A stretch of 64,000 nucleotides of DNA from NCBI GenBank assembly GCA_965215885.1, contig CBDCEW010000105.1:256001-320000 (forward strand). The letters run 5' to 3'. Below the pieces are notes generated by a model. The model was not told the DNA's origin, ran no database searches, and was given only the letters and a program-made list of their open reading frames with translations. How positions within the stretch are numbered: position 1 is the first letter of the stretch; the number at the start of each line of letters is the position of its first letter. Below, in pieces: positions 11,036 to 64,000 of the stretch. Source of the stretch: Candidatus Moanibacter sp. Lineage in GTDB: Bacteria > Verrucomicrobiota > Verrucomicrobiia > Opitutales > UBA2987. Position numbers and translations under genes: made by a program.

Positions 11036-12953
11036 GACCCCATTCGAAAAGCCTTTCGAGCGGACGGTTTCAGGTTTTCCGCCACAGGCGGACCAGCCTA
11101 TGGCTGGCAGGCGTCGGGTTTCAGGCTGCCGACGCTGCCGATGAGCAGGTATTGAGCGGCCATCGGCGTGGCTTGCTGCACAATACGCATATTTGCCGCT
11201 GTTTGGAGGCATACTCATCCCGTGGTGCTTTTTTCTCCGAGCTGCAAAGCGGTCAGATTCAGGCCGCCTGTTCCAGTTCCTCCCCTCGGCGTTTCTTCAT
11301 CAGTATGATGCGGCAGAAGTTGTAGGCCAGAACCTTCTCGAGCAGTTCATCGCCTACCGCATCGATGCCGCGGCGGCCGAGTTCGCCAAAGGCAAATCCA
11401 TCTTTAATCGTGAACATCAGCGACTCCACTGCGGAGCGATTGCGGCGTGCCTCGCGATACGCCTCGCTCTCCCGGTCCTCGGGGGTGGTCAACTTCTTGC
11501 CCTTCGCCCCACTGATACTGATCTGCTTTACCCCCATGCCCAGCACCTCCTTGCGCCCCTTCGCCGAAGCATATCCGTCATCGGTGCTGATCAGTTCAGC
11601 AATGACACCGGTGCGCTTGATCGAATCGCCGATGGCCGGCGCCAGCTCAATGGAGTCTGCCGCATTGCCTTGCGGTACGATCAGGCTGGTGACAAAACCG
11701 TTTTCGCTGCGAACCAGTTGTGGCTTGTACCCGATCACTGGATTGCGGCTGCCCTTCTTGATGTAGGCCGCCGATCCGTCCGACAGGCTCAGGACCTTCT
11801 GTGTGGACGGTAGCTTCTTTTCGTGAAACACCCGATCATGAGCATACTCAACAACCCGCTTGGCGTCGGCAATATCGCGCCTGATCTGGCTCAATACCCG
11901 CTTCAGAAGCTCCCGGCGAGTGGGAGGCAGTGAATCCATCGACAGGCCCTCTTCAAGATGGCTCAGTTCCCCCGTTAGTGAGTCGGCCGCCTTGCGGCCC
12001 CGCTTGAGCAACCGCCGGTAGTGTTTCTTCAGCTTGCCCTTCGGCTTCGGTTTGCCCGCGGCCAGACAAATCTGAAACTCCAGCTTGTCCATTTCCTCCA
12101 GCCAACGCCCAACCCATCCCTTGCGAAAATCCTCCAGCCCGAAGACATGCAACTTCTGACCCAAACGATTGGCCCGCATCAAAAGACCGCTCAGAATCTT
12201 CCCATCGGTGGGCCAGCAGCTGTTTGCTTTCACCGAGGTGCTGTCGATCGTCAGCTTCCCGAAATCGTCCCATTGCTCCTGGAGGATAAACCCAATCTGT
12301 TTATCAAAGATCAACTCGCGGGTCCTATGGCTGACCAGGTTCACGTTCTCCAGAATCGTCGTCACCGCCGGCATTCTCAGTCCCCCGCTCTGCAAAAATC
12401 CGTACAAGCTCATCGACTCGCGCACAAACCGCCGTGCCGGTTTCGTGGTCAACGAACCCAGAAACCCTCGAAGCATCACGAACACGTATACCGCATAAGC
12501 CGGCATCCGCGGCCGGCCTGCCCCAAGATTCAATTCAGCAGCCAGAATATTCTCCTCCTCGATGTCCAGCTCCGGCAGCTCCGCTGTGCGCCCTTCAAAG
12601 AACCTTCGATCTTCCAATCGAAGTTTCTTCTTCTCACGCGCATGGGCGTCCAGATCCTTCTCGATCGCCTCGATGATTTGCGCCGCGAACCCGGCCAATT
12701 CTTCAACTTCATCCAGAAAATCACGAAACTCCGTGTCTGGAACCGGCAGAATGAGGTTGCTAAGGGGCGTCTTGTCGCTTTTGTTCTCCTCTGTCGCACA
12801 TGTTGGCATGTTTAACTCCTTTCTTAATCTTAAGTTGTTAAACACTAGTATGTTACGACACTTTTTATCAAGCCGAAAAACTGATTTTTCTCAAGTTTTT
12901 CTTGCGCCTTTTGCGCCTTTTTGCGGCAAATCAGTAGCTTTTCGGATAAGGTC
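11036..12953 (-). mobile_element. IS-A copy 2 (IS5-like); flanks not duplicated
   Basis: TIRs GACCCCATTCGAAAAGC / GCTTTTCGGATAAGGTC; flanks TAGATA vs GAGCTA. Confidence 0.95.
11259..12809 (-). CDS. DDE transposase, IS5-like/ISNCY-type (516 aa)
   Basis: IDSTSVKANSCWPTD, STDDGY, RNRSAVESL motifs; AAGGAG RBS before ATG 12809. Confidence 0.88.
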   Translation of the reverse strand: MPTCATEENKSDKTPLSNLILPVPDTEFRDFLDEVEELAGFAAQIIEAIEKDLDAHAREKKKLRLEDRRFFEGRTAELPELDIEEENILAAELNLGAGRPRMPAYAVYVFVMLRGFLGSLTTKPARRFVRESMSLYGFLQSGGLRMPAVTTILENVNLVSHRTRELIFDKQIGFILQEQWDDFGKLTIDSTSVKANSCWPTDGKILSGLLMRANRLGQKLHVFGLEDFRKGWVGRWLEEMDKLEFQICLAAGKPKPKGKLKKHYRRLLKRGRKAADSLTGELSHLEEGLSMDSLPPTRRELLKRVLSQIRRDIADAKRVVEYAHDRVFHEKKLPSTQKVLSLSDGSAAYIKKGSRNPVIGYKPQLVRSENGFVTSLIVPQGNAADSIELAPAIGDSIKRTGVIAELISTDDGYASAKGRKEVLGMGVKQISISGAKGKKLTTPEDRESEAYREARRNRSAVESLMFTIKDGFAFGELGRRGIDAVGDELLEKVLAYNFCRIILMKKRRGEELEQAA

Positions 12954-13341
12954 GAGCTATAAGGGCCGTATCCACCTCACAGCTACCATGATTCAAGACG
13001 ATCCGGGCCGCTTTGAGACCGCCGCTGAGATCAAGATGATGCGTGGGATGGGAGCGGACATGGTCACGCACAACGTCGGAACCGAGGCGGTCTACGCACG
13101 GCAACTCGGGATCCGCTTCGCGGCTTTGAACTCCGGCTCAAATCCCGCCGTGGGTGTAAGACCCTTCAAGTATGCGGACATGCAGAACAGCGTGGCGCGA
13201 ATCACCTCACAGTCCGTGCCGATTATTCTCGAATGCGTAGCAAAAATTCCAACCCTGGATAATTCCTACGATCCAATCTGTGACGGTGAGAGATATGAAG
13301 GTTCCTATACCGGCAAAAGCGCCAAACCCGGTGTAGGGTGA
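12954..13341 (+). pseudogene. 5'-truncated MTAP/purine nucleoside phosphorylase
   Basis: PGRFETAAEIKMMRGMGADMV..GTEAVYARQLGI; begins directly at the IS-A end. Confidence 0.82.
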
Positions 13342-24325: not shown

Positions 24326-24414
24326 CTGCTCGGTCTCTTTGTCGTGTTGGCGCCCCAATGCAGCGCTCACCAATTTACGGCTGGACCATAGCAAGCCCTT
24401 TACCTCCATAGCAA

Positions 24415-26331
24415 GACCCCATTCGAAAAGCCTTTCGAGCGGGCGGTTTAAGGTTCTCCGCCACGGGCGGACCAGCCTATGGCTGGCAGGTTTCGGGTTT
24501 TAGGCTGCCGGCGCTGCCGATGAGCAGGTATTGAGCGGCCATCGGCGTGGCTTGCTGCACAATACGTATATTTGCCGCTGTCTGGAGGCATACTCATCCC
24601 GTGGTGCTTTTTTCTCTGAGCTTCAAAGCGGTCAGATTCAGGCTGCCTGTTCCAGTTCCTCCCCTCGGCGTTTCTTCATCAGTATGATGCGGCAGAAGTT
24701 GTAGGCCAGAACCTTCTCGAGCAGTTCATCGCCTACCGCATCGATGCCGCGGCGGCCGAGTTCGCCAAAGGCAAATCCATCTTTAATCGTGAACATCAGC
24801 GACTCCACTGCGGAGCGATCGCGGCGTGCCTCGCGATACGCCTCGCTCTCCCAGTCCTCGGGGGTGGTCAACTTCTTGCCCTTCGCCCCACTGATACTGA
24901 TCTGCTTTACCCCCATGCTCAGCACCTCCTTGCGTCCCTTCGCCGAAGCATATCCGTCATCGGTGCTGACCAGTTCAGCAATGACACCGGTGCGCTTGAT
25001 CGAATCGCCGATGGCCGGCGCCAGCTCAATGGAGTCTGCCGCGTTGCCTTGCGGTACGATCAGGCTGGTGACAAAACCGTTTTCGCTGCGAACCAGTTGT
25101 GGCTTGTACCCGATCACTGGATTGCGGCTGCCCTTCTTGATGTAGGCCGCCGATCCGTCCGAGAGGCTCAGGACCTTCTGTGTGGACGGTAGCTTCTTTT
25201 CGTGAAACACCCGATCATGAGCATACTCAACAACCCGCTTGGCGTCGGCAATATCGCCCCTGATCTGGCTCAATGCCCGCTCCAGAAGCTCCCGGCGAGT
25301 GGGAGGCAGTGAATCCATCGACAGGCCCTCTTCAAGATGGCTCAGTTCCCCCGTTAGTGAGTCGGCCGCCTTGCGGCCCCGCTTGAGCAACCGCCGGTAG
25401 TGTTTCTTCAGCTTGCCCTTCGACTTCGGTTTGCCCGCGGCCAGACAAATCTGAAACTCCAGCTTGTCCATTTCCTCCAGCCAACGCCCAACCCATCCCT
25501 TGCGAAAATCCTCCAGCCCGAAGACATGCAACTTCTGACCCAAACGATTGGCCCGCATCAAAAGACCGCTCAGAATCTTCCCATCGGTGGGCCAGCAGCT
25601 GTTTGCTTTCACCGAGGTGCTGTCGATCGTCAGCTTCCCGAAATCGTCCCATTGCTCCTGGAGGATAAACCCAATCTGTTTATCAAAGATCAACTCGCGG
25701 GTCGTATGGCTGACCAGGTTCACGTTCTCCAGAATCGTCGTCACCGCCGGCATTCTCAGTCCCCCGCTCTGCAAAAATCCGTACAAGCTCATCGACTCGC
25801 GCACAAACCGCCGTGCCGGTTTCGTGGTCAACGAACCCAGAAACCCTCGAAGCATCACGAACACGTATACCGCATAAGCCGGCATCCGCGGCCGGCCTGC
25901 CCCAAGATTCAATTCAGCAGCCAGAATATTCTCCTCCTCGATGTCCAGCTCCGGCAGCTCCGCTGTGCGCCCTTCAAAGAACCTGCGATCTTCCAATCGA
26001 AGTTTCTTCTTCTCACGCGCATGGGCGTCCAGATCCTTCTCGATCGCCTCGATGATTTGCGCCGCGAACCCGGCCAATTCTTCAACTTCATCCAGAAAAT
26101 CACGGAAATCCGTGTCTGGAACCGGCAGAATGAGGTTGCTAAGGGGCGTCTTATCGCTTTTGTTCTCCTCTGTCGCACATGTTGGCATGTTTAACTCCTT
26201 TCTTAATCTTAGGTTGTTAAACACTAGCATGTTGCGACACTTTTTATCAAGCCAAAAAATGATTTTTCTCAAGTTTTTCTTGCGCCTTTTGCGCCTCTTT
26301 GCGGCCAATCAGTAGCTTTTCGGATAAGGTC
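24415..26331 (-). mobile_element. IS-A copy 3, intact (1917 bp), TSD TAGCAA
   Basis: TIRs; TAGCAA at 24409-24414 and 26332-26337. Confidence 0.97.
24638..26188 (-). CDS. DDE transposase, IS5-like (516 aa)
   Basis: Same motifs as copy 2; ATG after AAGGAG. Confidence 0.9.
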   Translation of the reverse strand: MPTCATEENKSDKTPLSNLILPVPDTDFRDFLDEVEELAGFAAQIIEAIEKDLDAHAREKKKLRLEDRRFFEGRTAELPELDIEEENILAAELNLGAGRPRMPAYAVYVFVMLRGFLGSLTTKPARRFVRESMSLYGFLQSGGLRMPAVTTILENVNLVSHTTRELIFDKQIGFILQEQWDDFGKLTIDSTSVKANSCWPTDGKILSGLLMRANRLGQKLHVFGLEDFRKGWVGRWLEEMDKLEFQICLAAGKPKSKGKLKKHYRRLLKRGRKAADSLTGELSHLEEGLSMDSLPPTRRELLERALSQIRGDIADAKRVVEYAHDRVFHEKKLPSTQKVLSLSDGSAAYIKKGSRNPVIGYKPQLVRSENGFVTSLIVPQGNAADSIELAPAIGDSIKRTGVIAELVSTDDGYASAKGRKEVLSMGVKQISISGAKGKKLTTPEDWESEAYREARRDRSAVESLMFTIKDGFAFGELGRRGIDAVGDELLEKVLAYNFCRIILMKKRRGEELEQAA

Positions 26332-26786
26332 TAGCAAGCGCAGCTTGCCACGGAGGTTGCTTCCGGAGGGGAATACGGAATGGTGATGCAGCGGCCTGCT
26401 TCCGCGGGGCGCGAGAGCGCAACGCGGGACGGTTCTCTTTCTCTTTTTTGGTTGCGGATACGCTGCGCTAGCCCGGACATTTCACACACTTCGCAGCGAG
26501 ACAGCGTAGATCGCTGCGTATCAGAGCCTTTCCGCAGGTCGGCGGCGCTCCTACGTGAAGCAAGGCGGGACATTGAAAATCGCGGTGCGCCGTGACTATG
26601 GCCGCATCGACGCGCTCAGGGCCTTCGGTGGGTTTAGATTGCGGACTTCGATTGGATGTGACCTATAATCCATTCATCAGCAAACGAATCCCATAAATCG
26701 CAAGTATCATCGAAGGCCGAGAATGATGTGGGCATCGTGGAAAGCTGACGGTACAAACCCCATCGTTTCAAAAAAATCGAGGAGGG

Positions 26787-29409: not shown

Positions 29410-29784
29410 CGCCCTCCCGGGAAGGAGTGCCCGACATGTCACGGCGAAACACGAAGTGCGAAGACGGTAGGGTCGGTCAAGGTCTCACAACCGTTTCATC
29501 CAACTGCCCGCCGGGGTGGCGGTCACCTTGGCCAACGGCACGGATGAACCCGAGCAGCTTGTCATCAAACTCGCTGTTAGTGAAGTTTCGGACGACCGAT
29601 TGGAATCTGGGACGATCCACTTTGAAGACGGATCGGATGCCGCCACGGATCCGGTTGAACGGAGCGGGGTGCGGGAGTTGACGGTGAATCTGGGACGTGG
29701 TGAAGCGGCGATCTGGACTATGCCGTTTGCGAATCGTTGACCTAAGGCGGATCGACCAAGGAAATCTTGGTCTTTATTTAGATA

Positions 29785-31687
29785 GACCCCATTCGAAAAG
29801 CCTTTCGAGCGGGCGGTTTAAGGTTCTCCGCCACGGGCGGACCAGCCTATGGCTGGCAGGTTTCGGGTTTTAGGCTGCCGGCGCTGCCGATGAGCAGGTA
29901 TTGAGCGGCCATCGGCGTGGCTTGCTGCACAATACGTATATTTGCCGCTGTCTGGAGGCATACTCATCCCGTGGTGCTTTTTTCTCTGAGCTTCAAAGCG
30001 GTCAGATTCAGGCTGCCTGTTCCAGTTCCTCCCCTCGGCGTTTCCATCAGTATGATGCGGCAGAAGTTGTAGGCCAGAACCTTCTCGAGCAGCGCCTACC
30101 GCATCGATGCCGCGGCGGCCGAGTTCGCCAAAGGCAAATCCATCTTTAATCGTGAACATCAGCGACTCCACTGCGGAGCGATCGCGGCGTGCCTCGCGAT
30201 ACGGCTCTCCCAGTCCTCGGGGGTGGTCAACTTCTTGCCCTTCGCCCCACTGATACTGATCTGCTTTACCCCCATGCTCAGCACCTCCTTGCGTCCCTTC
30301 GCCGAAGCATATCCGTCATCGGTGCTGACCAGTTCAGCAATGACACCGGTGCGCTTGATCGAATCGCCGATGGCCGGCGCCAGCTCAATGGAGTCTGCCG
30401 CGTTGCCTTGCGGTACGATCAGGCTGGTGACAAAACCGTTTTCGCTGCGAACCAGTTGTGGCTTGTACCCGATCACTGGATTGCGGCTGCCCTTCTTGAT
30501 GTAGGCCGCCGATCCGTCCGAGAGGCTCAGGACCTTCTGTGTGGACGGTAGCTTCTTTTCGTGAAACACCCGATCATGAGCATACTCAACAACCCGCTTG
30601 GCGTCGGCAATATCGCCCCTGATCTGCTCAATGCCCGCCCAGAAGCTCCCGGCGAGTGGGAGGCAGTGAATCCATCGACAGGCCCTCTTCAAGATGGCTC
30701 AGTTCCCCCGTTAGTGAGTCGGCCGCCTTGCGGCCCCGCTTGAGCAACCGCCGGTAGTGTTTCTTCAGCTTGCCCTTCGACTTCGGTTTGCCCGCGGGCA
30801 GACAAATCTGAAACTCCAGCTTGTCCATCTCCGCAGCCAACGCCCAACCCATCCCTTGCGAAAATCCTCCAGCCCGAATATATGCAACTTCTGACCCAAA
30901 CGATTGGCCCGCATCAAAAGACCGCTCAGAATCCTCCCATCGGTGGGCCAGCAGCTGTTTGCTTTCACCGAGGTGCTGTCGATCGTCAGCTTCCCGAAAT
31001 CGTCCCATTGCTCCTGGAGGATAAACCCAATCTGTTTATCAAAGATCAGCTCGCGGGTCCTATGGCTGACCAGGTTCACGTTCTCCAGAATCGTCGTCAC
31101 CGCCGGCATTCTCAGTCCCCCGCTCTGCAAAAATCCGTACAAGCTCATCGACTCGCGCACAAACCGCCGTGCCGGTTTCGTGGTCAACGAACCCAGAAAC
31201 CCTCGAAGCATCACGAACACGTATACCGCATAAGCCGGCATCCGCGGCCGGCCTGCCCCAAGATTCAATTCAGCAGCCAGAATATTCTCCTCCTCGATGT
31301 CCAGCTCCGGCAGCTCCGCTGTGCGCCCTTCAAAGAACCTTCGATCTTCCAATCGAAGTTTCTTCTTCTCACGCGCATGGGCGTCCAGATCCTTCTCGAT
31401 CGCCTCGATGATTTGCGCCGCGAACCCGGCCAATTCTTCAACTTCATCCAGAAAATCACGGAAATCCGTGTCTGGAACCGGCAGAATGAGGTTGCTAAGG
31501 GGCGTCTTATCGCTTTTGTTCTCCTCTGTCGCACATGTTGGCATGTTTAACTCCTTTCTTAATCTTAAGTTGTTAAACACTAGCATGTTGCGACACTTTT
31601 TATCAAGCCAAAAAATGATTTTTCTCAAGTTTTTCTTGCGCCTTTTGCGCCTCTTTGCGGCCAATCAGTAGCTTTTCGGATAAGGTC
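29785..31687 (-). mobile_element. IS-A copy 4 (1903 bp), frameshifted transposase, TSD TAGATA
   Basis: TAGATA at 29779-29784 and 31688-31693; six small deletions totalling 14 bp versus copy 3. Confidence 0.95.
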
Positions 31688-31690
31688 TAG

Positions 31691-31750
31691 ATAGAACGTC
31701 AAAGGTCACCGGCACCCGTCAGGGGGTTCGATAGGCGCAATTGGTTCACA
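31691..31750 (-). other. Degenerate attC site
   Basis: Minus strand ...GTGAAC...GGGTGCCGGTGACCTTTGAC-GTTCTAT just after the stop of 31767-32699; left arm pairs poorly. Confidence 0.5.
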
Positions 31751-37934: not shown

Positions 37935-38945
37935 ATGAAAGCATACCAGGTAGAAAGTGACGGAGGAATCGACGCCATCACAGCCATCGAGCTACCCGAG
38001 CCTAAACCCGGGGCGGGTGAAGTGCTCGTGAAGATTCATGCCAATTCACTCAATTATCGCGACCTGGGAATCACAAGGGGCGGTTATTTTCGCAACGATA
38101 AGTGTCCCGTCATCCCGTTATCCGATGGAGCCGGGGAGGTCGTCGAGGTTGGCTCGGAGAGCAGCCGGTTCAGACCCGGTGACCGGGTTGCCGGATGTTT
38201 TTTTCAAGATTGGGTTAAGGGCGATATCAACGAATCCCAAATGCACACCGCACTTGGCGGCGGAGTCGACGGCGTGCTCGCGGAATACGTTGTTTTTAAG
38301 GAGCAGGGTCTCGTCCCCGTTCCCGAATCACTTTCCCTGGAGGAGGCCGCTACCCTCCCCTGCGCCGGCGTAACGGCGTGGCAGGCGCTTGTCACTCTCG
38401 GGCAGGTTAAGGCCGGTGACACGATCCTGCTGCTCGGAACGGGAGGTGTCTCCGTTTTCGCCCTGCAGTTCGCAAAGTCGAGCGGTGCCCGCGTGATCGT
38501 TACCTCGAGCAGTGATGAGAAACTCGAGAGGGCGAAATCGATGGGCGCCGACATGACGATTAATTACAAGGAGTGCCCGGACTGGGAAGAGGAGGTCCGC
38601 CGTCTTACCGCCGGCGCCGGGGTCGACAATGTCATCGAAGTGGGCGGACCGGGTACCCTGGAGAAGTCGCTCAAGTGCGCCCGCGTCAGTGGCCGCGTTT
38701 CGCTTATTGGCGTTCTCGATTCACCCGCGGCCACGATCTCTCCCCTCCTCTGTCTTTTCAACCGGGTTACGTTACAGGGAATCTACGTGGGAAGCCGGGA
38801 AATGTTCGAGGCCATGAATAACGGCATCGAGGTTAATGCCATCAAACCGGTCATCGACAAAGTTTTTGAATTTCCCGAAGCCCTCGATGCCTACCGTCAT
38901 CTCAAAGAGGCCAACCATTTCGGTAAAGTTGTGATAAGGCATTAG
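37935..38945 (+). CDS. NAD(P)-dependent MDR-family alcohol dehydrogenase/quinone oxidoreductase
   Basis: SLNYRD, PLSDGAGEV, LPCAGVTAWQAL, GTGGVS, HFGKVVI. Confidence 0.92.
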   Translation: MKAYQVESDGGIDAITAIELPEPKPGAGEVLVKIHANSLNYRDLGITRGGYFRNDKCPVIPLSDGAGEVVEVGSESSRFRPGDRVAGCFFQDWVKGDINESQMHTALGGGVDGVLAEYVVFKEQGLVPVPESLSLEEAATLPCAGVTAWQALVTLGQVKAGDTILLLGTGGVSVFALQFAKSSGARVIVTSSSDEKLERAKSMGADMTINYKECPDWEEEVRRLTAGAGVDNVIEVGGPGTLEKSLKCARVSGRVSLIGVLDSPAATISPLLCLFNRVTLQGIYVGSREMFEAMNNGIEVNAIKPVIDKVFEFPEALDAYRHLKEANHFGKVVIRH

Positions 38946-38959
38946 CCCGCTTTTTGTCG

Positions 38960-39514
38960 TCGGCAAGCATACGGGATCGGGTTCCAGCTCGCACATTTCG
39001 AAGTCTGAGCCGGGCATCGGCACCTGTGCGAACTCGTGCGCGCCACCCCCGATAAGCAATCGCCGGTCCTCCGTGGGCCGGTAATAGATGCTACGGACAT
39101 CATCGTCTGTCGCCGGCAGACGCGGTGCGCGGGCAAAGGGACGGGTGAGGTGGCGTTCGATCACGAAGTTTCGCGACGGCATCGCCTGACCGACTCCGGA
39201 GAGTAGAGAATTGGCCCAGGCATTGACCGTGCAAACGGTGGCGTTGGCGGTCAGCTCCCGGCCGTCGCCGAGGACAACACCCTGAACCCGGCCGCCCTGG
39301 ACGAGAAAGCGCTGGACGGGCGTTCGCTCGCGAATTTCAACGCCCAGCTGGCGCACCTTTGCCGCGAACCCTTGGCCCGTTGGGCGTAGACCGGGCTGAT
39401 CCCATTGGCAAACTGGCTGGGGCGACGGCCGATCAATTGGGTCCAGCCGGGAATCAGTTCACCCGCGCGTTCGAAGAGCTCGTAAGAACGCGAGACATCA
39501 GGTCGCGGGATCAT
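38960..39514 (-). pseudogene. Chimeric remnant: aminotransferase-III N-terminus joined to an internal DAO-family FAD oxidoreductase fragment
   Basis: ELIPGWTQLIGRRPSQFA..PVYAQRAKGS abuts QLGVEIRERTPV...CTVNAWAN..YYRP..LLIGG near 39357. Confidence 0.7.
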
Positions 39515-39602
39515 CTGTCGGACCCTCTGTATTTGCCCCGGTCACTGTTGAAATTGAAAGCGGAAATCGCGGTCCCCTCCTCACAGATTCCTGGCTGCTG
39601 CT

Positions 39603-40981
39603 CTAATTATTAATCTCTTGCACGATTTCGGAAATACTTTCATCCAGGATAGCTATAATTCTATCAGCCTGTTCTTCCGTCAGGATTAAGGGCGGCCCTA
39701 AGGCAATCCAGTGCGGATCATAGCGCGACAGAAGTCCCTTTGAAAGAGCCCGTTTCCCTATCAGTGTAGCAATCGGTATATCATCTGGAAATCTCTCTTT
39801 TGTCGCAGGATCACGGACAAATTCGATACCCATAAACAACCCCTTCCCTCGAATGTCGCCGACAATTCCATGCTTGCGAAAGCTCTCCAGACCATTGCGC
39901 AGATGACTGCCAACCTTGCGGGCATTTCCACATAAATCCTTTTCAATAATCTCCCCTATCGTCGCCAAACCGGCCGCACAGGCAACGGGATTGCCTTCAT
40001 AAGTATGTCCCGATACGAAGCCGGGGTTTGTTTTCTTTTCTCCCCAGAATTTATCAGCGATATGTCTTCGACAGAGCAGTGCGGAAAGAGGCACGTATCC
40101 TCCCGACAATCCTTTACCCAAACAAATCAAATCCGGGACAACACCAAAAGTCTCGGCGGCAAACATCTCTCCGGTGCGGCCCATCCCCGTGATTATTTCA
40201 TCAAAATCAATAACACGTTATGCCGGTCACAAAATTCGCGCAATTGGGGCAGATACTCAGGAGGAGGGTCAAAGATGCCTCCGGTATGCCCAATCGGCTC
40301 AACAATAAGGGCGGCGACGGTTTCCGGACCCTCCATGATGATGGTATCCTCAATCAATCCGGCACAGGTAATTTCACAACTGGGGTATTCTTTACCAAAA
40401 GGGCATCGATAACAATAGGGGGGAAATACATGAACAAAACCAGCGGCCAGCGGCTCGGAATCAACGCGACGCGAACTTAGACCCGAAGCTGACAAGGATC
40501 CCATCGTGCCCCCATGCCAGGAATGGTATCGAGAGATTACCTTGTACTTGTTAGGACTGCCATTAAGTCTATGATACTGGCGTGCCATTTTAAAAGCGGC
40601 TTCATTTGTTTCGGCGCCACCGCTGCCGAATTTTACCGCGCTCAAATCGCCGGGCGCGATATCTGCCAGTTTATTCGCTAATTGAACGGCTAACGTATTG
40701 GTGCCATGCATGACCGGGGAAAAGGTCAGAATATCCAACTGATTTTTTATCGCTTCAATCACCCGGCGGTTATTATGGCCAACCGATGCGACATAGATTC
40801 CCGCAATTCCATCAAGGTAACGCTTTCCATAAATGTCCGTGTAATAAACCCCGTCGGCGCCTGCCAAAATGAAGGGGTCCTTAACAAACTCCGTCATCTG
40901 ATCGCGGACAAATATCTGCCGCAGATACCGTTCTTCCAGGGTTTGTTTTTCAGTAATCAGACCACTCATCGCCGTTACCAC
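39603..40981 (-). pseudogene. Class III aminotransferase split by a 1-nt frameshift at ~40203 (possible sequencing error)
   Basis: YLDGIAG, SGGAETNE, VEPI, then (F)DEIITGMGRTG..LGKGLSGGY..GHTY in the next frame; one T missing in a T run. Confidence 0.85.
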
Positions 40982-49936: not shown

Positions 49937-52900
49937 AAGGATTCCAGGAAGCAACTAGCTGATAAGCAAGAAGATAAAAAAAGAGCTAAACAAACCCGAG
50001 GGAATCAGTCATGTTAAGATGGGATGAAAGACAAAAAATCTTACCAACTGAATCCTTCGATAGATCGTTTAACTCTGCGTCTGGTCCTGCCCGAAGAGCA
50101 GGAGCGATTCAATGATCTATTGAAACAACATCATTATTTACACAGTGCGGGCAGCGCAGGAGAGACCCTGCGCTATGTGGCGCAGATCGACGGGCAATGG
50201 ATGGGCCTGCTCTTGTGGGGGGCCGCATCCTACCGGCTGAAGGATCGAGACGAATGGATCGGGTGGGACGGGGCGCAACGGCATGCACGATTGAAACTGG
50301 TAGTACAGAACCGGCGTTTTCTGATTTTGCCCGGGGTGGATCTTGCAAATTTGGCCTCCAAGACGTTGGGTATGTGCCTGAGAGTCTTAGCCGATCACTG
50401 GCAGGAGGCTTTTGGCTATCGTCCCTTAGTAGCGGAAACGTTCGTGGACCCACAGATTCACCGGGGCACTTGCTACGAAGCGAGCGGGTGGACGCCCTTG
50501 GGCTTGAGCGCGGGATATGGCCGCCAACGCGAAGATTTCTATCAACGCCATGAGCGTCCCAAGCAGATCTGGGTCAAACCCCTCAAGGCTAATGCCCTTG
50601 AGCTTTTGCGCGCTTCAGGGCCATTGCCCGCGGCACAGAGCCAGGCGCTCAATGAAACCGATAACTCCCATGCGGTCTGCCTCAAAGTGGAACAGATGAG
50701 CAGCCTGTGGGAACGCTTCAATCAGATAGAAGACTTCCGTCGTAAAGCGGGCCTTAGATATCGGCTCGCCACGGTCCTGAGCATGATTGTGCTCGGCACG
50801 ATGTGCGGCAAACAGACCCTCAAGGGCATCGTGCGCCTGGCCCATCATCTCAATCAAGCCCAATTGCGCGCCTTACGCTCCTGGAAAAACCCCAAAACAG
50901 GCCGCTATAAGGCCCCTTGCTATGATGTCTTCTATCGGGTCTTGCAAAACGTAAAGGCCGAGCTCTTCGATAAAACCCTCACCGAATTCATCTGCTTACA
51001 AGACGGCTGTTTGCCCCGCGATATTGCCGTCGACGGCAAGACCCTCAAAGGCACAAACACCGAAGAATCAAAGGCTCTGCACCTGGTGGCCGCAGTCGAT
51101 CACCAAAGCGCTCAAACCTTAGCCCAAGTCGCTACCGCCGATAAATCCAACGAGATCACCGCCGCCCAGACTCTCTTGCGAAAGATGCCCATTTTGGACG
51201 GCTCCACCTTCACCTTCGACGCCATGCATAATCAAAAAGAAACTGCCCACATCGTCGTCGAAGAACTCAGTGCTGACTATGTTATTCAAATTAAAGACAA
51301 TCAGCCCAACATGCATCAATACGCTCAGAATCTCTTCAGCTCCACCCCCTTTTTCTCCACCAACTCTGACTTTTGTGGATGTAACGACTTCCCATCCCCT
51401 ATCATCATATACCACTAAAGCCGAAGCAAGCTTCGGGGAATGAACCGTGGACAATGACCATGGGCGACTCGAAATACGTCAAATAGCAACCCATTCTCTA
51501 AGCGCTCCCTCTGCCGGCCTGCCCCATGCCCGCCAGTTCGCCTGTGTGCAACGCACCTTCCATTATCCAAACAAAGCTGAACCTTCCTCTGAACGCTCTT
51601 ACTAGACCCCATTCGAAAAGCCTTTCGAGCGGGCGGTTTAAGGTTCTCCGCCACGGGCGGACCAGCCTATGGCTGGCAGGTTTCGGGTTTTAGGCTGCCG
51701 GCGCTGCCGATGAGCAGGTATTGAGCGGCCATCGGCGTGGCTTGCTGCACAATACGTATATTTGCCGCTGTCTGGAGGCATACTCATCCCGTGGTGCTTT
51801 TTTCTCTGAGCTTCAAAGCGGTCAGATTCAGGCTGCCTGTTCCAGTTCCTCCCCTCGGCGTTTCTTCATCAGTATGATGCGGCAGAAGTTGTAGGCCAGA
51901 ACCTTCTCGAGCAGTTCATCGCCTACCGCATCGATGCCGCGGCGGCCGAGTTCGCCAAAGGCAAATCCATCTTTAATCGTGAACATCAGCGACTCCACTG
52001 CGGAGCGATCGCGGCGTGCCTCGCGATACGCCTCGCTCTCCCAGTCCTCGGGGGTGGTCAACTTCTTGCCCTTCGCCCCACTGATACTGATCTGCTTTAC
52101 CCCCATGCTCAGCACCTCCTTGCGTCCCTTCGCCGAAGCATATCCGTCATCGGTGCTGACCAGTTCAGCAATGACACCGGTGCGCTTGATCGAATCGCCG
52201 ATGGCCGGCGCCAGCTCAATGGAGTCTGCCGCGTTGCCTTGCGGTACGATCAGGCTGGTGACAAAACCGTTTTCGCTGCGAACCAGTTGTGGCTTGTACC
52301 CGATCACTGGATTGCGGCTGCCCTTCTTGATGTAGGCCGCCGATCCGTCCGAGAGGCTCAGGACCTTCTGTGTGGACGGTAGCTTCTTTTCGTGAAACAC
52401 CCGATCATGAGCATACTCAACAACCCGCTTGGCGTCGGCAATATCGCCCCTGATCTGGCTCAATGCCCGCTCCAGAAGCTCCCGGCGAGTGGGAGGCAGT
52501 GAATCCATCGACAGGCCCTCTTCAAGATGGCTCAGTTCCCCCGTTAGTGAGTCGGCCGCCTTGCGGCCCCGCTTGAGCAACCGCCGGTAGTGTTTCTTCA
52601 GCTTGCCCTTCGACTTCGGTTTGCCCGCGGCCAGACAAATCTGAAACTCCAGCTTGTCCATTTCCTCCAGCCAACGCCCAACCCATCCCTTGCGAAAATC
52701 CTCCAGCCCGAAGACATGCAACTTCTGACCCAAACGATTGGCCCGCATCAAAAGACCGCTCAGAATCTTCCCATCGGTGGGCCAGCAGCTGTTTGCTTTC
52801 ACCGAGGTGCTGTCGATCGTCAGCTTCCCGAAATCGTCCCATTGCTCCTGGAGGATAAACCCAATCTGTTTATCAAAGATCAACTCGCGGGTCGTATGGC

Positions 52901-53831
52901 TGACCAGGTTCACGTTCTCCAGAATCGTCGTCACCGCCGGCATTCTCAGTCCCCCGCTCTGCAAAAATCCGTACAAGCTCATCGACTCGCGCACAAACCG
53001 CCGTGCCGGTTTCGTGGTCAACGAACCCAGAAACCCTCGAATCATCACGAACACGTATACCGCATAAGCCGGCATCCGCGGCCGGCCTGCCCCAAGATTC
53101 AATTCAGCAGCCAGAATATTCTCCTCCTCGATGTCCAGCTCCGGCAGCTCCGCTGTGCGCCCTTCAAAGAACCTGCGATCTTCCAATCGAAGTTTCTTCT
53201 TCTCACGCGCATGGGCGTCCAGATCCTTCTCGATCGCCTCGATGATTTGCGCCGCGAACCCGGCCAATTCTTCAACTTCATCCAGAAAATCACGGAAATC
53301 CGTGTCTGGAACCGGCAGAATGAGGTTGCTAAGGGGCGTCTTATCGCTTTTGTTCTCCTCTGTCGCACATGTTGGCATGTTTAACTCCTTTCTTAATCTT
53401 AGGTTGTTAAACACTAGCATGTTGCGACACTTTTTATCAAGCCAAAAAATGATTTTTCTCAAGTTTTTCTTGCGCCTTTTGCGCCTCTTTGCGGCCAATC
53501 AGTAGCTTTTCGGATAAGGTCTTACTACGTAAGCAGTCTCAATCCCGCCGATTTGAGCCCTCAACAGTTCCTCTCGAAAATTCGCAACCATTGGTCGATC
53601 GAAAATAAAAATCATTACCCCAGGGATCGCTTCTTCGATGAAGATCGATGTATGATCCGTAATCATAACGCAGCCAGAATTCTTGCTGCATGCAGGCAAC
53701 TGGTTCTCAGCCTCAAGTCTTCCATGGGCGCTGAATCCACTCCCGCACTCTGTGATGATTTCGTCTTTAACTTACATAAGGCCATCAATATCATCACCTA
53801 ATGCTCCGAGAATCAAAATACATCCGGGCTG
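49929..53831 (+). mobile_element. ISAs1-family element with DUF4338(DruA-like)-fused transposase (50024..53801), interrupted twice
   Basis: N-domain HHYL..GETLRYVA..RDEWIGW..NRRFLILP..ETFVDP; ISAs1 motifs IAVDGKTL, DKSNEI, DAMHNQ, IKDNQP, DHGRLEIR, HWSIEN..RD..FDED; ends approximate. Confidence 0.85.
51605..53521 (-). mobile_element. IS-A copy 5, intact (1917 bp), TSD TTACTA; transposase 51828..53378
   Basis: TTACTA at 51599-51604 and 53522-53527, inside the ISAs1 transposase. Confidence 0.97.
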
Positions 53832-57474: not shown

Positions 57475-58270
57475 ATCCCGCTGTCCGGAAATGTCGATAC
57501 CGATCTCGTGCATCACTTTAACAGCAAGGGGATTGAGCCCGTGTTTTTCAATTCCCGCCGAGGACGGTTCAAAAACATCGCCTCGGAAGTAGCGGCATGT
57601 CGCGGTAGTCAATGCCCGGCCAGTTGAACAGGGTGATGTCGTGTTGGTAATGAGTGGGAAATTGCGCCGATTCCACGAGCCGGCGATACTTCCATAGCGG
57701 CCCTTTCGTGCCCGCCATCTCCTCGAACACCTGGTACTCGAGCCAGCCGGTCGTCTCACCGTAAATCTCGCCGCCGTGCACTTGGATACGCAGACCTAGC
57801 GTTGGTGGTCGCGGTAATGCTCGTAGTGAGTCGGCTTCGCAATGCGATGGTTCTCACCCTCGGGCTTCCGTTCGAGGGCGAATGTGTATGTGCAACTTTG
57901 CACACAATGTGGCTTCGTGTCGTGCGGCTGAGCATGTGGTTCGGAGGTCTCTTGCACAGATTCCGCGCCCACCACATAATCCGTGCCCGTCAGCTGCAGC
58001 ATATCACCCAGCTCCGTCGCGTCCAAAATATACTGAAACGCAATCCGCACGGCACGGCCGTTGTCGAGGTTTTGCGCCGTGATAGAAACGACGCGGTCGC
58101 CTTCCATCTGTGCTTCGGTCGCCTTTGTGCGCAGAAAAACCTTCAACCGTCCTCCCTCGACCTGCGGCGAAAGCAACTTGTCGATTGCGTCGACCGCCAC
58201 TATCGCCCCCAGCGGATCTCCCTCCTCCGGAACGCGCATTACGTCAACGAGCGCTTTTAATTTTCTCTTC
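57475..58270 (-). pseudogene. Fragments of an FAD-dependent oxidoreductase fused to an ArsC/LMWPTP fragment
   Basis: [72 protein letters not shown]. Confidence 0.72.
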
Positions 58271-58396
58271 ATCGGCCATTCATTCTGGCAGTTGCGGGAG
58301 CTGAACAAAGTATGCCTCGTCCTGATCGATCCAGAAAGTGTTCGTTGAGTACCTACTTTTCATCCGCCGCAAACAGCCGGTATCTTGTTAGCTGAC

Positions 58397-59699: not shown

Positions 59700-59750
59700 G
59701 CCCAACGTTTGAGGACAGGTACGCGATTTATCGCGTTTCCTGCACCGGTT
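59700..59750 (-). other. attC site interrupted at its R'' end by the mini-intron
   Basis: Core GTTGGGC (59700-59706); hairpin CAGG.ACGCGA-TTTA-TCGCGT..CCTG. Confidence 0.75.
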
Positions 59751-59988
59751 GTGGGCCGGGCAGATCCGACTGCTCGATGGTGATGTTAACATCAGAAAGG
59801 AAATGACACATGAAGTAAACAAAGTCCAGACCCAGCCCGATCAGCTGACCTGTCCGACGTAGCCTTGGCGAAGTTGGGACCGCCACTTACGGCATGCCAC
59901 CGTCCCGCTGGGTAGGATCCTTCAGGGCGAAGACGGACCCCTACATCCCGCTCAGCGGGATCACGGCCTAAGCCGTTCGAGTGGTGGT
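59751..59988 (+). ncRNA. Miniature group IIC intron derivative (5' ~90 nt joined to domain V)
   Basis: 59751-59841 nearly identical to 60902-60992; then ACCGCCACTTACGG...CCGT.CGAGTGGTGGT; domain VI not seen. Confidence 0.8.
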
Positions 59989-60832
59989 CTAGAAGTGGCG
60001 TCCTTTTACCGTTGGATTGTAGGGCTTTAGTTCCAATTCCCTCGAGTCGAAAAGTAATGCGCTGAATTTTCTCGACAGCGATCGGCTTGCCTTCACTCCA
60101 GGCAGGACGGTAGATCGATTGTAAGACGGCTTTCAACGCTGGATCCTCAAATTCGGTATGCGATGAACTCTTAACCGCAATTCTTGCGACCGTCCCTAAC
60201 TCGTTAATTCGAATATGTATTGCAACGGATCCCTCAACTCCCTTCCTCTTTAATTCGAATGGATACACAGGCATTGGCATAAATAATCGTCTCGGTTCCA
60301 GAATTTCCTCTTGTCTAAGAATGTATTCATCGATCACTGGTTTCGTGTTGATGCTACCAAATTTGACTTTACTCAATAGCGCGTGAGTGACGACGTCTGC
60401 CATTGAAATGCGTTCTCTGATTTCATGGTCCTTAAAGTAGCTAACCAGAGGTGAATCAGATTCTGATAGCCAATTTTGAGCGACCCAATCGGAGATACAG
60501 AGAAACTCCATTCCGAATCGAACAAATCGATAATATTCGAGTTCTGAAAATCGCATTTCGCCGGGAAAAAATCGACTATTCGTTTTCCAATACCTGAGAT
60601 CCTTAAGAAGGGAGCGCGGAAGAGATCTCCGAAGCTGGCGCACGGCTTCGGTGATATTCCGAGGAATTTCGTTCTTCAATGCCGGAGGTTCTGCAGAGAC
60701 CATTGATAACTCGAAACAGCCGTCTCCGACGTTGGAGTGCACCGCGTTTGGGATGACAGTGGAGCACAGGAAAATCATCAGTGCTTTTCGCAACCACCTT
60801 CCGGGTCGACTTCCTCGTGCTACATCTTGCAT
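59792..60832 (-). CDS. TonB C-terminal domain protein, cassette-borne; 3' end reads into the intron remnant
   Basis: PVYPFELKRKGVEGSV...INELGTV...FEDPALKAV..YRPA..GKP. Confidence 0.75.
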   Translation of the reverse strand: MQDVARGSRPGRWLRKALMIFLCSTVIPNAVHSNVGDGCFELSMVSAEPPALKNEIPRNITEAVRQLRRSLPRSLLKDLRYWKTNSRFFPGEMRFSELEYYRFVRFGMEFLCISDWVAQNWLSESDSPLVSYFKDHEIRERISMADVVTHALLSKVKFGSINTKPVIDEYILRQEEILEPRRLFMPMPVYPFELKRKGVEGSVAIHIRINELGTVARIAVKSSSHTEFEDPALKAVLQSIYRPAWSEGKPIAVEKIQRITFRLEGIGTKALQSNGKRTPLLDHHSNGLGRDPAERDVGVRLRPEGSYPAGRWHAVSGGPNFAKATSDRSADRAGSGLCLLHVSFPF

Positions 60833-60844
60833 CGACTCTTGAAA

Positions 60845-60901
60845 ATCCACCGTCAAAGCGCACTCGCGGAGGCGTAAGCCGGAGTTGAGTGCCGCCTTGT
60901 T
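60845..60901 (-). other. attC site split by the group II intron (remainder 63487-63490)
   Basis: Rejoined minus strand GCCC|AAC-AAGGCGGCACTC..GGC-TTAC-GCC..GAGTGCGC..GGTGGAT; core GTT mutated to GGT. Confidence 0.8.
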
Positions 60902-61209
60902 GTGTGCCGGGCAGATCCGACTGCTCGATGGTAATGTTAACATCAGAAAGGAAATGACACAGGAGGTAAACAAAGTCCAGAACCAGCCCGATGGAGGCGA
61001 AGGTTAGCCAATGGCAAGAGTATCACAGCGATGTGGGCTCGGAGGAAGCCGGAGGCAAAGACGCGTGCTGACGAACAGGTATGCCCCGCACCGGAAACGG
61101 TGGAGGGCAGGCAGATGAGGCGGGGGAAGACTGGGACGAATCTGCAACACAAGATGAAGTCCTCTATCCATCAGAGAGTTGACCCACGTAGATCTGATCC
61201 CGCTGAGCG

Positions 61210-62822
61210 CATACGCGTTAACTTAAGGAGAAGAAACAAGAGAGGAAATCAAGTCGAGAACGCTTTTCATAGGTGCAGTGTTTGGGGATTTGTTTGAGCC
61301 ATCGGGGGATGATCTGATCTTTGGGAAGGTGAGAGAGGATGAAGAAGTAGGGAGCAAAGAAGCCAAACCAGTAGGAGAATTTAAGGATACTCAGAGGAGA
61401 GGACAAACTGGTATTCGAATAGTGTCTAAGGGGACCATAGACGAAGTTGAGTAAGTGGGTAATGAGGATGAGACGGGCGTAGATAAGAAGCTCAACCTGG
61501 TAGGGAGTAGTCTCTTTGACCTGACCGAGATTAAGATGTTGCTTAAAGGCCTTGAAGAGAATTTCGATGCGCCATCCCGCTCAGCGGGACCGTAAAAGCT
61601 CAGAATCTGCTTAGGGCTAAAGTCTTTCTGATGGAGGTTGGTAATAAAGATTTGGAAACCGAGAAGGAAGCTGGTGCGGCTGGTATATCGAAGTCTATTG
61701 TCGCGGTTTTTTCTATGCTTGTGGCGGCGTTTATGGGCCACCTTCTGAGGGAGTTTGACGGCGATCAGACGAACCGGAAGCTTGGCTTTTTTACCCACCC
61801 GAACGGGCATATCGAGAAGCTTTTGGCCACGTAAAAGTTTGCGTAGATCGAGCTCTTCATCGCCTTCGTTGGCTAAAAGGCAAGTGCCGGTTTTCAAACG
61901 ACTCACAAAGAAGCAGCCGCGCTGATCGAGTTGCTTAAAGAGGTCGAGGACAAAATAGCCTAAGTCGCGCAGGATCAGGTCGTTGGGTTGAGCAACAGCG
62001 AGAATGTCCTTGGAAGCAGCCTGATCGTTTTTTCGGAAGCTTGAGAGGCTGAAGTCCACGAAGGATTCATTGCGCAAATCGTAATAAGCCTGGATCTTAA
62101 GTTGAGCCTGCTTGGAGCCTGTCTGATTGGAGGCTCCGGGGAAGAAGGGGGCGAGGGCCTTAGGCAAGCCAATCGAAGTGCTGTCGACAATGAGAACCCG
62201 TTCAAAGCTCCTCATGCAATTTGGAACAGCTCTGCCCACAGGCCCATAAGCTTTAAGTTCCAGAAGCTTCAGGAGCACTAAGGTCATAAAAGCGGTGGCT
62301 TTTTTGGCGCACTTTTGGACCGCTTGTCTGGAAATGGTGCGGTTGGCTAAGAATCCAATAAGCTCGGCTTCTTTGCCAAGGGACAAGGCCCCCTTAGAAG
62401 CCATCGCCAGCAAAGCCAAAACAAAGTTCAGTGGGGAAATCTTGCGCGATTTCCTCTCTCTGAAACCACTCTGTTTAGCGAGGGCTGTGAGGTTCAACTT
62501 ACGGAAGGTTTGACGGATACAATCAGCTTTTTTATACTTTGTATCCGAAGGATAAATCCTATATATGAACGAATGTACAGTATAAAATGCTGCCAAAGTG
62601 AAAAAAATGGGGGTAGACGGTAAAAGTAGAGAAGATAACCCGGTCAAAATGCACTCGCTCAACTGCGAATTTCCTCACCGCTGTGGTCGAAACGAAGCAA
62701 ATAGAAAAGGGCGAACAAATGGAGTGGAACCTCGAGGATAGAGACACCCTCATACTCCGCCGCAAAATACCTCGCAAGTCTTTGAATCTGACTAAGTTGC
62801 GAAAATAAGGTTGACGCGTATG
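61210..62822 (-). mobile_element. IS4-family (IS231-like) element, frameshifted transposase (~61218-62560)
   Basis: TIRs CATACGCGTTAAC / CATACGCGTCAAC; IVDSTSI, LRDLGYF, disrupted Y..RWRIE..FK motif; flanks CGCTGAGCG / CGCTCAGCG. Confidence 0.88.
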
Positions 62823-63102
62823 CGCTCAGCGGGATGCGTCGAAAGTAGTCGGAGTAACCCCGGGAGAGCCGCTATGTCTTCTTTGTTTGAGGAGTGAGCA
62901 ACCCGCAAGGGGAGCCCAGCGCATAGCGGCAGTCAGCCGAGGGCATAAGAGTCGTAGAGGAAACGAGCCGGGAGTAGTCGCCGATCCACGGCGTGCCGGG
63001 ATCCGACGAAGAATCCGGAGGACTCACCCCGACAAAGGCCCGAACGGTGCCTTGTGCCGAAGGGCACAGGTAAATGAGAGTGGCAAGTAGGAAGAGCGAC
63101 TA

Positions 63103-63345
63103 ATGAACTCATTGCAGCAGTCCAGCTCAGAAGAGTTTGTTGCGTCGCGAATATCCCAAAGCCCGACAGGACGGATCCGGCTCTTGGAGAGTATCCCGGA
63201 GCGGAAGAACATGCAGCGCGCGCTGCACTTTGCCCGCTACGTCGAGGACTGTGTCATCTTCGTCCGAAGCGAGCGGGGAGGGAAACGGGTGATGGAATTT
63301 CCCGTCATTCGGGCTCGTCTTCCCCTGGACCCGATCCTGCCCTGA
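63103..63345 (+). pseudogene. Collapsed intron reverse transcriptase/maturase remnant
   Basis: RT0-like LLESIPERKNMQRAL fused to RT5-like HFARYVEDCVIFVRSERGGKRVME (YADD->YVED). Confidence 0.82.
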
Positions 63346-63486
63346 TCAGCCGAAGCGTCTCCCCGCCACTGATCAGCCGAACCGCCACTTACGGCATGCC
63401 ACGGCGAAGCCCTTCAGGGCGAAGACGGGACCCGTACGAGTGGTGGTGTGGGAGGGGCGCCCCGCGAGGGGCGTCCCTCCCCCGAT

Positions 63487-63963
63487 GGGCGGTTTTCGTT
63501 TGTTTCTGAAGCGAATTGGTTTCGGTCCAAACCATAGTGATGTCTTCTTTTCCGGAAATCGATCATTCAAATACGATAGAAAACACTTCCAATCCTTTGA
63601 CGTAAATCCGACCGGCACAATTTGGAATGACTGCTGCCCCTCGAATTTTATGAGGAAAGTAACCAGCCCTTTTCCAATCGAACTATATGCTTCAAGCTGC
63701 GACCAAGAGTACTCACCCGATCCTGGAAATAGCATTCGAATCGTAATCTTCTCCTCATTCCACAATATCTCTTTCGGAGTAAACATAATCAAAACACCTA
63801 CGGCTAAAAACGAACTCACCATCGCAGCCGTAAGAATCAAATCATCGATGCGGATATTCTTACCTTGGATGTAAGGTAAAAGTCCCGTGAGTATTGCCCA
63901 CAGTACGAAGAAGCCGAAAAATGCCTTTAGAAATGCACGTAGGTAGTTTGGCTTCAGCATCAT
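63487..63963 (-). CDS. Cassette-borne membrane protein; no stop before the attC/intron junction
   Basis: Two TM helices; ATG 7 bp after core GTTGGGC (63971-63977); ORF currently runs to 63373 inside the intron. Confidence 0.7.
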
Positions 63964-64000
63964 GATTTTCGCCCAACGCTCAAGTGGAGGCATGCCGGGC

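Follow-up and report, generated by a model that had tools for sequence, protein, structure and literature searches.

Within a 64,000-nt stretch of the genome of Candidatus Moanibacter sp. (positions 256,001 to 320,000 of contig CBDCEW010000105.1 of assembly GCA_965215885.1, here called the window) we find, on the plus strand at 60902-63486, what is most probably a decayed copy of a class-C group II intron of the kind that targets the attC sites of integrons, from which the reverse transcriptase (RT) gene has been deleted. The RT-less form, of about 0.9 kb, recurs with the same two deletion junctions at different attC sites and in several genomes, and judged from these sequences it is therefore a family and not decay private to one locus. 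We favor the view that at some time in the past this family was spread by a helper RT acting in trans, while the copy within the window, termed copy A, is almost certainly an immobile relic. Coordinates are those of the window (C105:256001-320000) unless a contig or locus is named. The genome of the window is termed G000; G006 belongs to the same family but another genus, and G063 to another family.

The element had been picked out in an earlier reading of the letters alone (the sequence-only reading) as a group IIC intron lying antisense in an attC site, with a collapsed RT and an insertion sequence (IS) inside it. This description was borne out, and each feature then listed was found at the position given for it or no more than about 12 nt away. 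The features are collected in Table 1.

Intron termini and domain I

The boundaries of copy A were set by comparison with copies B, C, E and F of the same genome together with foreign copies. On the plus strand the 5' junction at 60901/60902 reads CCTTGTT/GTGTGCC, so that GTGTG begins straight after TTGTT as had been noticed, and the 3' junction at 63486/63487 reads CCCGAT/GGGC. The GTGTG...GAT ends are also found in copies B, C and F and in the foreign copies, and fit the GUGYG and AY termini of group II introns.

The sequence-only reading had proposed a covariance-model check for domains I to IV, and this gave a match to the Rfam family group-II-D1D4-3 (RF02001) at 61112-61196 with 34 bits against a gathering score of 32. 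A second, partial match lies at 61022-61108 (29.6 bits). RF02001 is the sole Rfam family to reach its gathering score anywhere in the window. In copy B, which has no IS, it matches across the full model with 59.3 bits, the model running on past the point at which the IS stands in copy A. The 8-nt loop of the model falls at 61144-61151 and is a candidate for exon-binding site 1 (EBS1), with AACA at 61146-61149 placed so that it could pair with TGTT of the exon. On this reading of the loop the pairing of EBS1 with intron-binding site 1 (IBS1) would comprise 3-4 bp. A hairpin lies directly upstream of the intron, in keeping with the insertion habit of class C (short IBS1, no IBS2).

Domains V and VI

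Introns of class C carry a CGC rather than an AGC triad, and their domain V is shortened. The domain V of this lineage is short, with a 9-bp lower helix, a 2-nt bulge, a 3-bp upper helix and a 4-nt loop, amounting to 30 nt in clean copies such as B. The CGC triad is invariant, being present in all 32 domain V/VI sequences that we aligned. Thus the class-C-type domain V that had been read from the sequence is there, although that reading overlooked 35 extra nucleotides in the apical loop of copy A, at about 63394-63430. The same loop insertion is common to copies A, D, E and F of G000 and to two copies of G006, that is, to six sites in two genomes, and was present in none of the full-length relatives examined. 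Domain VI ends as had been described, with GAT finishing at 63486. The branch adenosine has been lost from copy A, where C stands at 63479; a bulged A occupies this position in 31 of the 32 aligned sequences, including copy B.

The helices of the two domains are supported by covariation. Over the 26 pairs counted in the alignment, 96.7% of cells are paired and 13 pairs have changed on both sides. None of 500 shuffles scored as high, and controls in which the helices were slid reached at most 56% pairing. We also built a covariance model (R1) solely from 27 introns of other genomes. It matches copy A at 63379-63486 with 69.8 bits (E 1e-14) and copy B with 96.2 bits, while domain V/VI of an unrelated intron of the same genome scores 43.2 bits.

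The remnant of the RT gene

The open reading frame (ORF) between the ribozyme domains has 80 codons, and BLASTP aligns it in two blocks with a full-length relative of 465 amino acids. Residues 1-41 of the remnant correspond to residues 11-69 of the relative (the N-terminus and RT0), and residues 38-65 to residues 265-292, from the YADD motif (here YVED) to RT6. Through a second deletion RT6 now runs straight into the gene's final few codons, which are recognizable when another frame is read. There are therefore two internal deletions, one of RT1-RT4 and the other from RT7 to near the stop codon, and the joining of RT0 to a mutated YADD block that had been noticed at the outset was correctly seen. 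A Pfam search of the ORF at 63103-63345 gave no match.

In known introns the protein-binding arm of domain IV lies before the start codon. Between copies of the present element the best-conserved segment is the stretch of about 94 nt before the ATG (95-98% identity), and the least conserved is the RT5-6 block (85-93%).

A family of RT-less copies

A blastn search with the intron ends revealed six copies in the genome, A and five more. When copy B was searched against the genomes of the order, 14 of 401 gave matches, and those running contiguously across the RT remnant were in G000, G006 and G063, with 87-89% identity. We aligned eight copies, namely A, B and C, three of G006 and two of G063. 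Both RT deletion junctions are identical in all eight, in three genomes belonging to two families. The four copies whose flanks were read (A, B, L005 and L007) sit at different attC sites; the flanks of the G063 copies were not read. The sequence-only reading had taken a single copy of the deletion form as the mark of a dead relic, and the form is plainly not single-copy.

The junctions were also sought in public sequencing data. According to a k-mer index, part of the stretch occupied by copies B and C occurs in 20 public runs, which belong to 13 studies. In the four runs examined, contigs from two span both junctions (X3 record 17, from DNA, and X16 record 4, from an RNA library that may hold DNA), and in one X16 contig the adjoining RT codons of a full-length version are present. 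We considered whether contigs of X16 and X17, one of them unspliced into the 3' exon, were evidence of transcription or splicing, and rejected this since they may derive from DNA and come from other organisms. Metagenome contigs of the Joint Genome Institute (JGI) gave no match to a 35-letter degenerate pattern for the RT0/YADD junction, and a looser pattern gave 19 loci, none of which contained the intron by blastn.

An autonomous intron that decayed in place would have deletions private to its locus. The only support for this is that copy A is decayed, and the idea is refuted by the identical junctions of the eight copies and of the contigs from two runs.

Between copies B and C identity is 100% in the first 117 nt and 95% beyond. 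They form a head-to-tail pair (C105:322443-323890) in which GAT abuts GTGTG. Other such pairs are found in a metagenome-assembled genome (MAG) of a gammaproteobacterium (L030) and in the sponge-metagenome contig X3 record 17. These pairs are consistent with repeated homing into a single 5' exon that stays intact. Copy D, in the neighboring attC, comprises the first ~91 nt followed by domain V with its loop insertion and two small insertions, and a degenerate domain VI. Between its domains II and III copy B has 35 inserted nucleotides of its own (L003:8846-8882); the other copies and the X9 and X16 contigs lack them.

The attC site and its integron

The intron lies antisense to the cassette genes, within the bottom strand of R'', just as had been proposed. 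When it is removed the flanks rejoin as GTT/GGGC, the complement of the R'' sequence GCCCAAC of the cassette strand. The sequence GCCCAAC is found on the plus strand at 63971-63977, corresponding to GTTGGGC on the cassette strand. Compared with the attC consensus RYYYAAC ... GTTRRRY, the rejoined R'' agrees at seven of seven positions. By eye, the site has a 7-bp L box with one extrahelical C and spacers of 7 and 4 nt. Three intron-free attC sites, from the array and from other contigs, have the same layout and the same spacer motif after the complement of R'. On the plus strand this layout runs from a box ending in AAC through a 7-nt spacer of conserved type, the paired L box, a variable loop and a spacer to GTT, and in the attC sites of the array the 3' arm of the L box carries one or two extra bases.

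An integron integrase gene fragment, truncated at its 5' end, is located 7 kb past the window and closes the array. The C-terminal half of intI, at C105:327378-327905, matches TIGR02249 over positions 139-314 with 214.8 bits, and is divergent from small minus-strand genes that are separated by attC-like repeats. Cassettes beyond the window include HigBA, an AAC(3)-like gene and a DUF pair, among others.

Full-length relatives

To place the element we scanned one genome per species with a related protein and kept 80 of 137 relatives. The closest, at 72-79% identity, come from Desulfobacterota, Gammaproteobacteria, Pirellulales, Verrucomicrobia and other MAGs. The full-length relatives encode RVT_1 and GIIM and no endonuclease domain, and RF02001 is present at 11 of 12 close relative loci. 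The 5' end could be placed exactly in 12 introns; 11 of these begin after a GTT that has an attC-like AAC-plus-spacer motif upstream of it, and in the twelfth case another intron copy comes first. Where the 5' end could be placed only approximately, four of eight introns follow GTT. Distant relatives (37-47% identity; Clostridia, Bacteroidales and Bacilli) contain RF02001 in 20 of 20 cases, and at least 14 of the 20 are, by eye, directly behind a hairpin and T-run.

A quick maximum-likelihood protein tree with 38 rows places the G006 cognate proteins in one clade with every row labeled as attC-inserted, with a support of 98 in the Shimodaira-Hasegawa-like approximate likelihood ratio test (SH-aLRT), separate from the terminator-inserted clades. 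Ten of the 15 attC labels were checked on the sequence; the tree has six very long branches that are probably wrong ORFs, and was made without named IIC-attC members.

Weighing the assignment

A number of observations weigh against the assignment, and two more, concerning the helper protein and the movement of deletions between copies, are given below with the question of spread to which they belong. First, the Rfam model for domains V and VI (RF00029) gives no match to copy A at E<=10, nor to the clean copy B in a 111-nt search. It matches three of the 12 close full-length relatives and 14 of 20 distant ones. The miss is not decisive, because model R1, built only from foreign introns, does match and the helices covary; of the covariance-model check proposed for 63378-63486 the Rfam part failed, therefore, while a model of the lineage itself succeeded. 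Second, the R' box is imperfect, with ACC in place of AAC; it fits the consensus at six of seven positions, and the mismatch, at the second, is inside the crossover triplet. Third, the rejoined attC folds no better than chance, with z = -0.63 and 72 of 300 shuffles as low. The fold-energy measure has little power, as intact attC sites of the array span z values from +1.14 to -2.11. Fourth, no homologous empty site was found when the cassette protein was compared with 401 genomes. The sole homologue, in G281 with 44% identity, stops just before a different attC and so provides no empty site. Last, the element could not be anchored to the named IIC-attC clade, to S.ma.I2 or to any other member. 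When a plasmid collection was searched for named IIC-attC introns, two of the 60 protein matches listed were examined and neither was in an integron; a search of the same collection with the ribozyme DNA of a relative gave no match.

Some of these points would also suit a different reading, in which the host hairpin resembles a terminator and is no attC, the intron behind it is of the common class-C type, and the region simply happens to have small genes on one strand. According to PMC4424553, class-C introns habitually sit behind a hairpin and T-run. The insignificant folding energy and the imperfect R' box are compatible with such a host. So are the flanking ORFs, which by our reading would without the intron lie in one frame with no stop, and the finding of neither a terminator nor an outward promoter consensus at 60700-61300. 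Against such a host, no T-run follows the hairpin. The integrase fragment is placed and oriented as an integron requires, the cassettes are separated by conserved repeats of attC type that have extrahelical bases, and attC-like targets with insertion at GTT are found throughout a clade that is apart from the terminator-inserted introns. We consider an ordinary hairpin host very improbable. A strict attC scan (consensus plus fold) of C105:308000-328000 listed one site and none of those discussed here; it was too strict for this array, since the sites discussed went unlisted.

Copy A and the search for a helper

The sequence-only reading suggested that 60902-63486 might itself be a non-autonomous intron that can be mobilized in trans. 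Both ends of the RNA, the triad of domain V and the arm of domain IV have persisted, which would be in accord with this. Against it, domain I is split by the IS with the loss of 6 nt of a helix, the branch A has been replaced, uniquely among the 32 aligned sequences, and domain V has its loop insertion. We regard continuing mobility of copy A as highly unlikely. Its domain I is interrupted by the IS and has lost a helix strand, its branch site is altered and it has no helper, all of which points to loss of activity; the sole plausible effect of copy A at present is that a cassette ORF is cut off from the attC belonging to it.

That reading had also proposed a search of the genome for intact relatives encoding the intron protein. 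No intact cognate RT was found in G000, for which the assembly is 90.3% complete, nor in the loci fetched from G006 and G139, and this counts against spread by a helper as well as against any present mobility. Two RT genes of G000 pass Pfam, but they are only ~35% identical to the cognate protein and come from other intron types. Of a cognate RT this genome shows no trace other than a C-terminal piece, which belongs to copy F on contig C2. The cognate genes fetched in G006 and G139 are frameshifted or 5'-truncated.

How the family may have arisen and spread

The observations suggest the following course of events. The RNA of an ancestor would have entered an integron attC by reverse splicing into its bottom strand while this was single-stranded, just past the GTT of the R'' box and under the guidance of the attC hairpin and 3-4 bp of EBS1-IBS1 pairing. 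Entry into the bottom strand at R'' would place the element antisense to the cassette genes. Two internal deletions removed the RT but spared the ribozyme together with the part of domain IV that surrounds the start codon. The deletion form is now present at several different attC sites, in no fewer than three genomes, and most likely reached them by retrohoming with the cognate protein supplied in trans. In copy A there followed the IS4-family insertion in domain I and loss of the branch adenosine, and it also has the 35-nt insertion in domain V. The sequences show what the element is, where and in which orientation it lies, its deletions, its IS and the shared junctions, whereas the mode of spread and the loss of activity are inferred. 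Mobilization in trans seems likely for the past of the family, if not for copy A.

The principal alternative is that the RT deletions were spread by homologous recombination or gene conversion among full-length insertions already present at different attC sites, and that RT-less RNA never retrohomed. A form deleted in domain I is found at three sites, with identical ends in the RT-bearing L018 and in the RT-less copies C and L011. RNA lacking this part of domain I could not reverse-splice, and therefore recombination or recurrent deletion does move deletion alleles between copies. The shared junctions become weaker evidence that RT-less RNA retrohomed, and this tells against spread in trans. 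The 35-nt insertion in domain V is likewise present in both RT-bearing and RT-less copies, and identity between copies B and C drops after the first 117 nt; each of these three findings shows that exchange takes place among the copies. On the other side, gene conversion needs a prior full-length copy at each site, and no full-length cognate is left in G000. In one attC copy B lies upstream of copy C, which is dead, and this is what a second homing event into a 5' exon left intact would be expected to give. Moreover the domain IV arm is more conserved than the RT remnant. Retrohoming of the RT-less RNA is the simplest reading. Since recombination also shuffles the copies, we hold mobilization in trans as probable rather than firm, and gene conversion alone as the less likely account, though one to be taken seriously.

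More tentatively, the RT-less element might be a non-autonomous attC retroelement family that rides on an attC-homing group II intron, analogous to a short interspersed nuclear element (SINE), and spreads within and between marine bacteria by means of a cognate protein produced elsewhere, with a mobile sub-lineage marked by the 35-nt extension of domain V. If this were true, the most conserved domain of group II introns would tolerate a large loop insertion.

Relationship to known introns

To our knowledge no retroelements other than IIC-attC introns home into the recombination sites of integrons, and a part in the building of gene cassettes has been proposed for them. Standard intron surveys would overlook an RT-less family, since there is no RT domain to be found and RF00029 misses its domain V/VI. 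If such elements were mobilized in trans there would be a hidden layer of small parasitic introns in integron arrays, parting cassettes from their attC sites. As a relic, copy A aids the dating and ordering of events in a decaying integron.

As described in PMC3001079 and PMC7923331, IIC-attC introns insert antisense into the bottom strand at R'' with the consensus TTGT/T, and carry outward promoters. The introns of this group (S.ma.I2, E.c.I7, Kl.pn.I1 and G.s.I1, among others) resemble the present element in their class-C ribozyme and R'' bottom-strand target, in a protein lacking the endonuclease (En) domain (seen here in the full-length relatives) and in splitting a gene from its attC (PMC3001079, PMC7923331). 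They differ in that here the RT gene has collapsed to 80 codons and the array is chromosomal, in an environmental bacterium. The insertion that we observe, TTGTT/G with GUGUG...AU ends, differs from the published TTGT/T, but because of the shared T the two registers are indistinguishable in sequence. In contrast to S.ma.I2 with its promoter Pout, no sigma-70-like outward promoter was found here at 60700-61300. IS1111-attC elements (ISPa21 and ISPst6) likewise insert close to the attC 5' end and antisense to the cassettes (PMC3001079), but these are DNA transposons unrelated in sequence to the intron.

A related case is UHB.F1, a single truncated IIC-attC intron from a soda-lake metagenome whose best match is a Verrucomicrobia RT (PMC7923331). 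It is likewise degraded and antisense, in a cassette array rich in toxin-antitoxin cassettes. UHB.F1 is 5'-truncated and single and keeps RT domains, whereas here the RT is internally deleted, both ends are kept and there are multiple copies.

Bacterial introns without an ORF are rare and nearly always accompanied by a gene for a related protein in the genome, and few would have been overlooked unless domain V is unusual (PMC4424553). ORF-less introns served in trans, including a cyanobacterial example, resemble the present family in having an RT-less ribozyme in several copies and in the idea of a helper (PMC4424553). Here, by contrast, no helper was found, the targets are attC sites, and domain V/VI escapes RF00029. 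C.te.I1 of Clostridium tetani is named in PMC4424553. This ORF-less class-C intron is likewise reported to have no cognate protein gene in its genome. Our element differs in being repeated, in sitting in intergenic attC sites and in being broken in the window copy. C.te.I1 is reportedly a single, splicing-competent intron within a gene. Detection in PMC8919778 is via the RT and RF00029. In the parts of the full-text literature that were accessible we found no description of a multi-copy RT-less derivative of IIC-attC introns.

The insertion sequence, neighboring genes and feature coordinates

Table 1. Positions of the intron, its parts and its surroundings (window numbering, except copy B)
Feature	Position	Strand	Details
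Copy D, remnant in neighboring attC	59751-60013	+	263 nt; attC body 59700-59750
Next cassette ORF, TonB_C/DUF6794	60043-60833	-	Between two intron-occupied attC sites
5' exon, attC body, bottom strand	60845-60901	+	
R'-complement-like box	60845-60851	+	ACC in place of AAC
Spacer	60852-60858	+	
L' arm	60859-60865	+	
Variable loop	60866-60886	+	
L'' arm	60887-60894	+	One extrahelical C
Spacer	60895-60898	+	
GTT of R''	60899-60901	+	
Whole intron-derived element, copy A	60902-63486	+	947 nt intron and 1638 nt IS
Domain I, intron 5' segment	60902-61197	+	RF02001 matches
IS4-family IS	61198-62835		1638 bp; 20-bp terminal inverted repeats
IS transposase ORF	61391-62662	-	NF033592, 141.6 bits (cut-off 115); PF01609
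End of domain I to 5' arm of domain IV	62836-63102	+	
Remnant of intron-encoded protein gene	63103-63345	+	80 codons; BLASTP to full-length relative
Domain V	63382-63446	+	CGC triad, 9-bp lower helix, AC bulge 63436-63437, short upper helix
Domain VI and 3' end (GAT)	63450-63486	+	Domain VI itself 63450-63483
3' exon start, rest of R''	63487-63493	+	GGGC...
Cassette ORF, membrane protein	63494-63993	-	No family match; owns the intron-bearing attC; frame runs into the intron
Copy B	C105:322443-323358		916 nt; no IS

The presence of an IS inside the intron was correctly recognized by the sequence-only reading, but its ends are at 61198 and 62835 rather than at 61210 and 62822. They were fixed by alignment with the IS-less sister copy B and foreign copies. 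At its site 6 nt are missing, which in the IS-less copies belong to a helix of domain I. There are 30 full-length copies of this IS in the genome. No target duplication was found here, and by eye there was no direct repeat in the flanks of the 30 copies.

A perfect 15-bp palindrome, built from the 7 outermost nucleotides of the two IS ends, is found at 99 places in the genome, including 59946-59962 and 61573-61590 of the window. In G063 (L108) a variant of it replaces the same 6 intron nucleotides that the IS replaces in copy A. A variant is also present at a second intron hairpin and, in an X17 contig, at the joint of a 199-nt deletion, and a related palindrome marks the junction of the domain I deletion in copies C and L011. 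The palindromes could be excision footprints, minimal elements or targets. Targeting of hairpin loops by the IS, suggested by a few flanks read by eye, was considered and rejected; the mean number of complementary positions in the IS flanks is 4.3 compared with 3.98 in controls, with seven or more in two of the 30 copies. The solo palindromes resemble controls, and their flanks are no more self-complementary than random.

When the intron is removed the ORFs of the membrane protein and the TonB_C protein share a frame with no stop between them. Because of this common frame and the ACC in place of AAC in R', the two cassettes may be a fused pair that can no longer be separated. In the array outside the window, the gene of an AAC(3)-family acetyltransferase is split between two frames (L003:9931-10946), close to a HigB/HigA pair (10825-11423). 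The intI gene near the array (C105:327125-327938) is without the first 138 profile positions, and the 119-amino-acid ORF that precedes it has no family match. A complete IntI (432 bits) is encoded on another contig at C100:128287-129216, and a separate N-terminal fragment is also found on C100.

Elsewhere in the window there are gene fragments at 38772-40981 and 57796-58308, comprising an aminotransferase in two pieces, DAO and an FAD-oxidoreductase. Together with the IS copies these fragments suggest a region in decay. Elements of ~1.9 kb with a DDE transposase of 528-556 amino acids are located at 1-609, 11028-12962, 24407-26340, 29777-31696 and 51597-53530. Their best NCBIfam match is ISNCY, with 259 bits, under the cut-off of 325. 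The copy at 29777-31696 is broken into several frames, and that at 1-609 is cut by the edge of the window.

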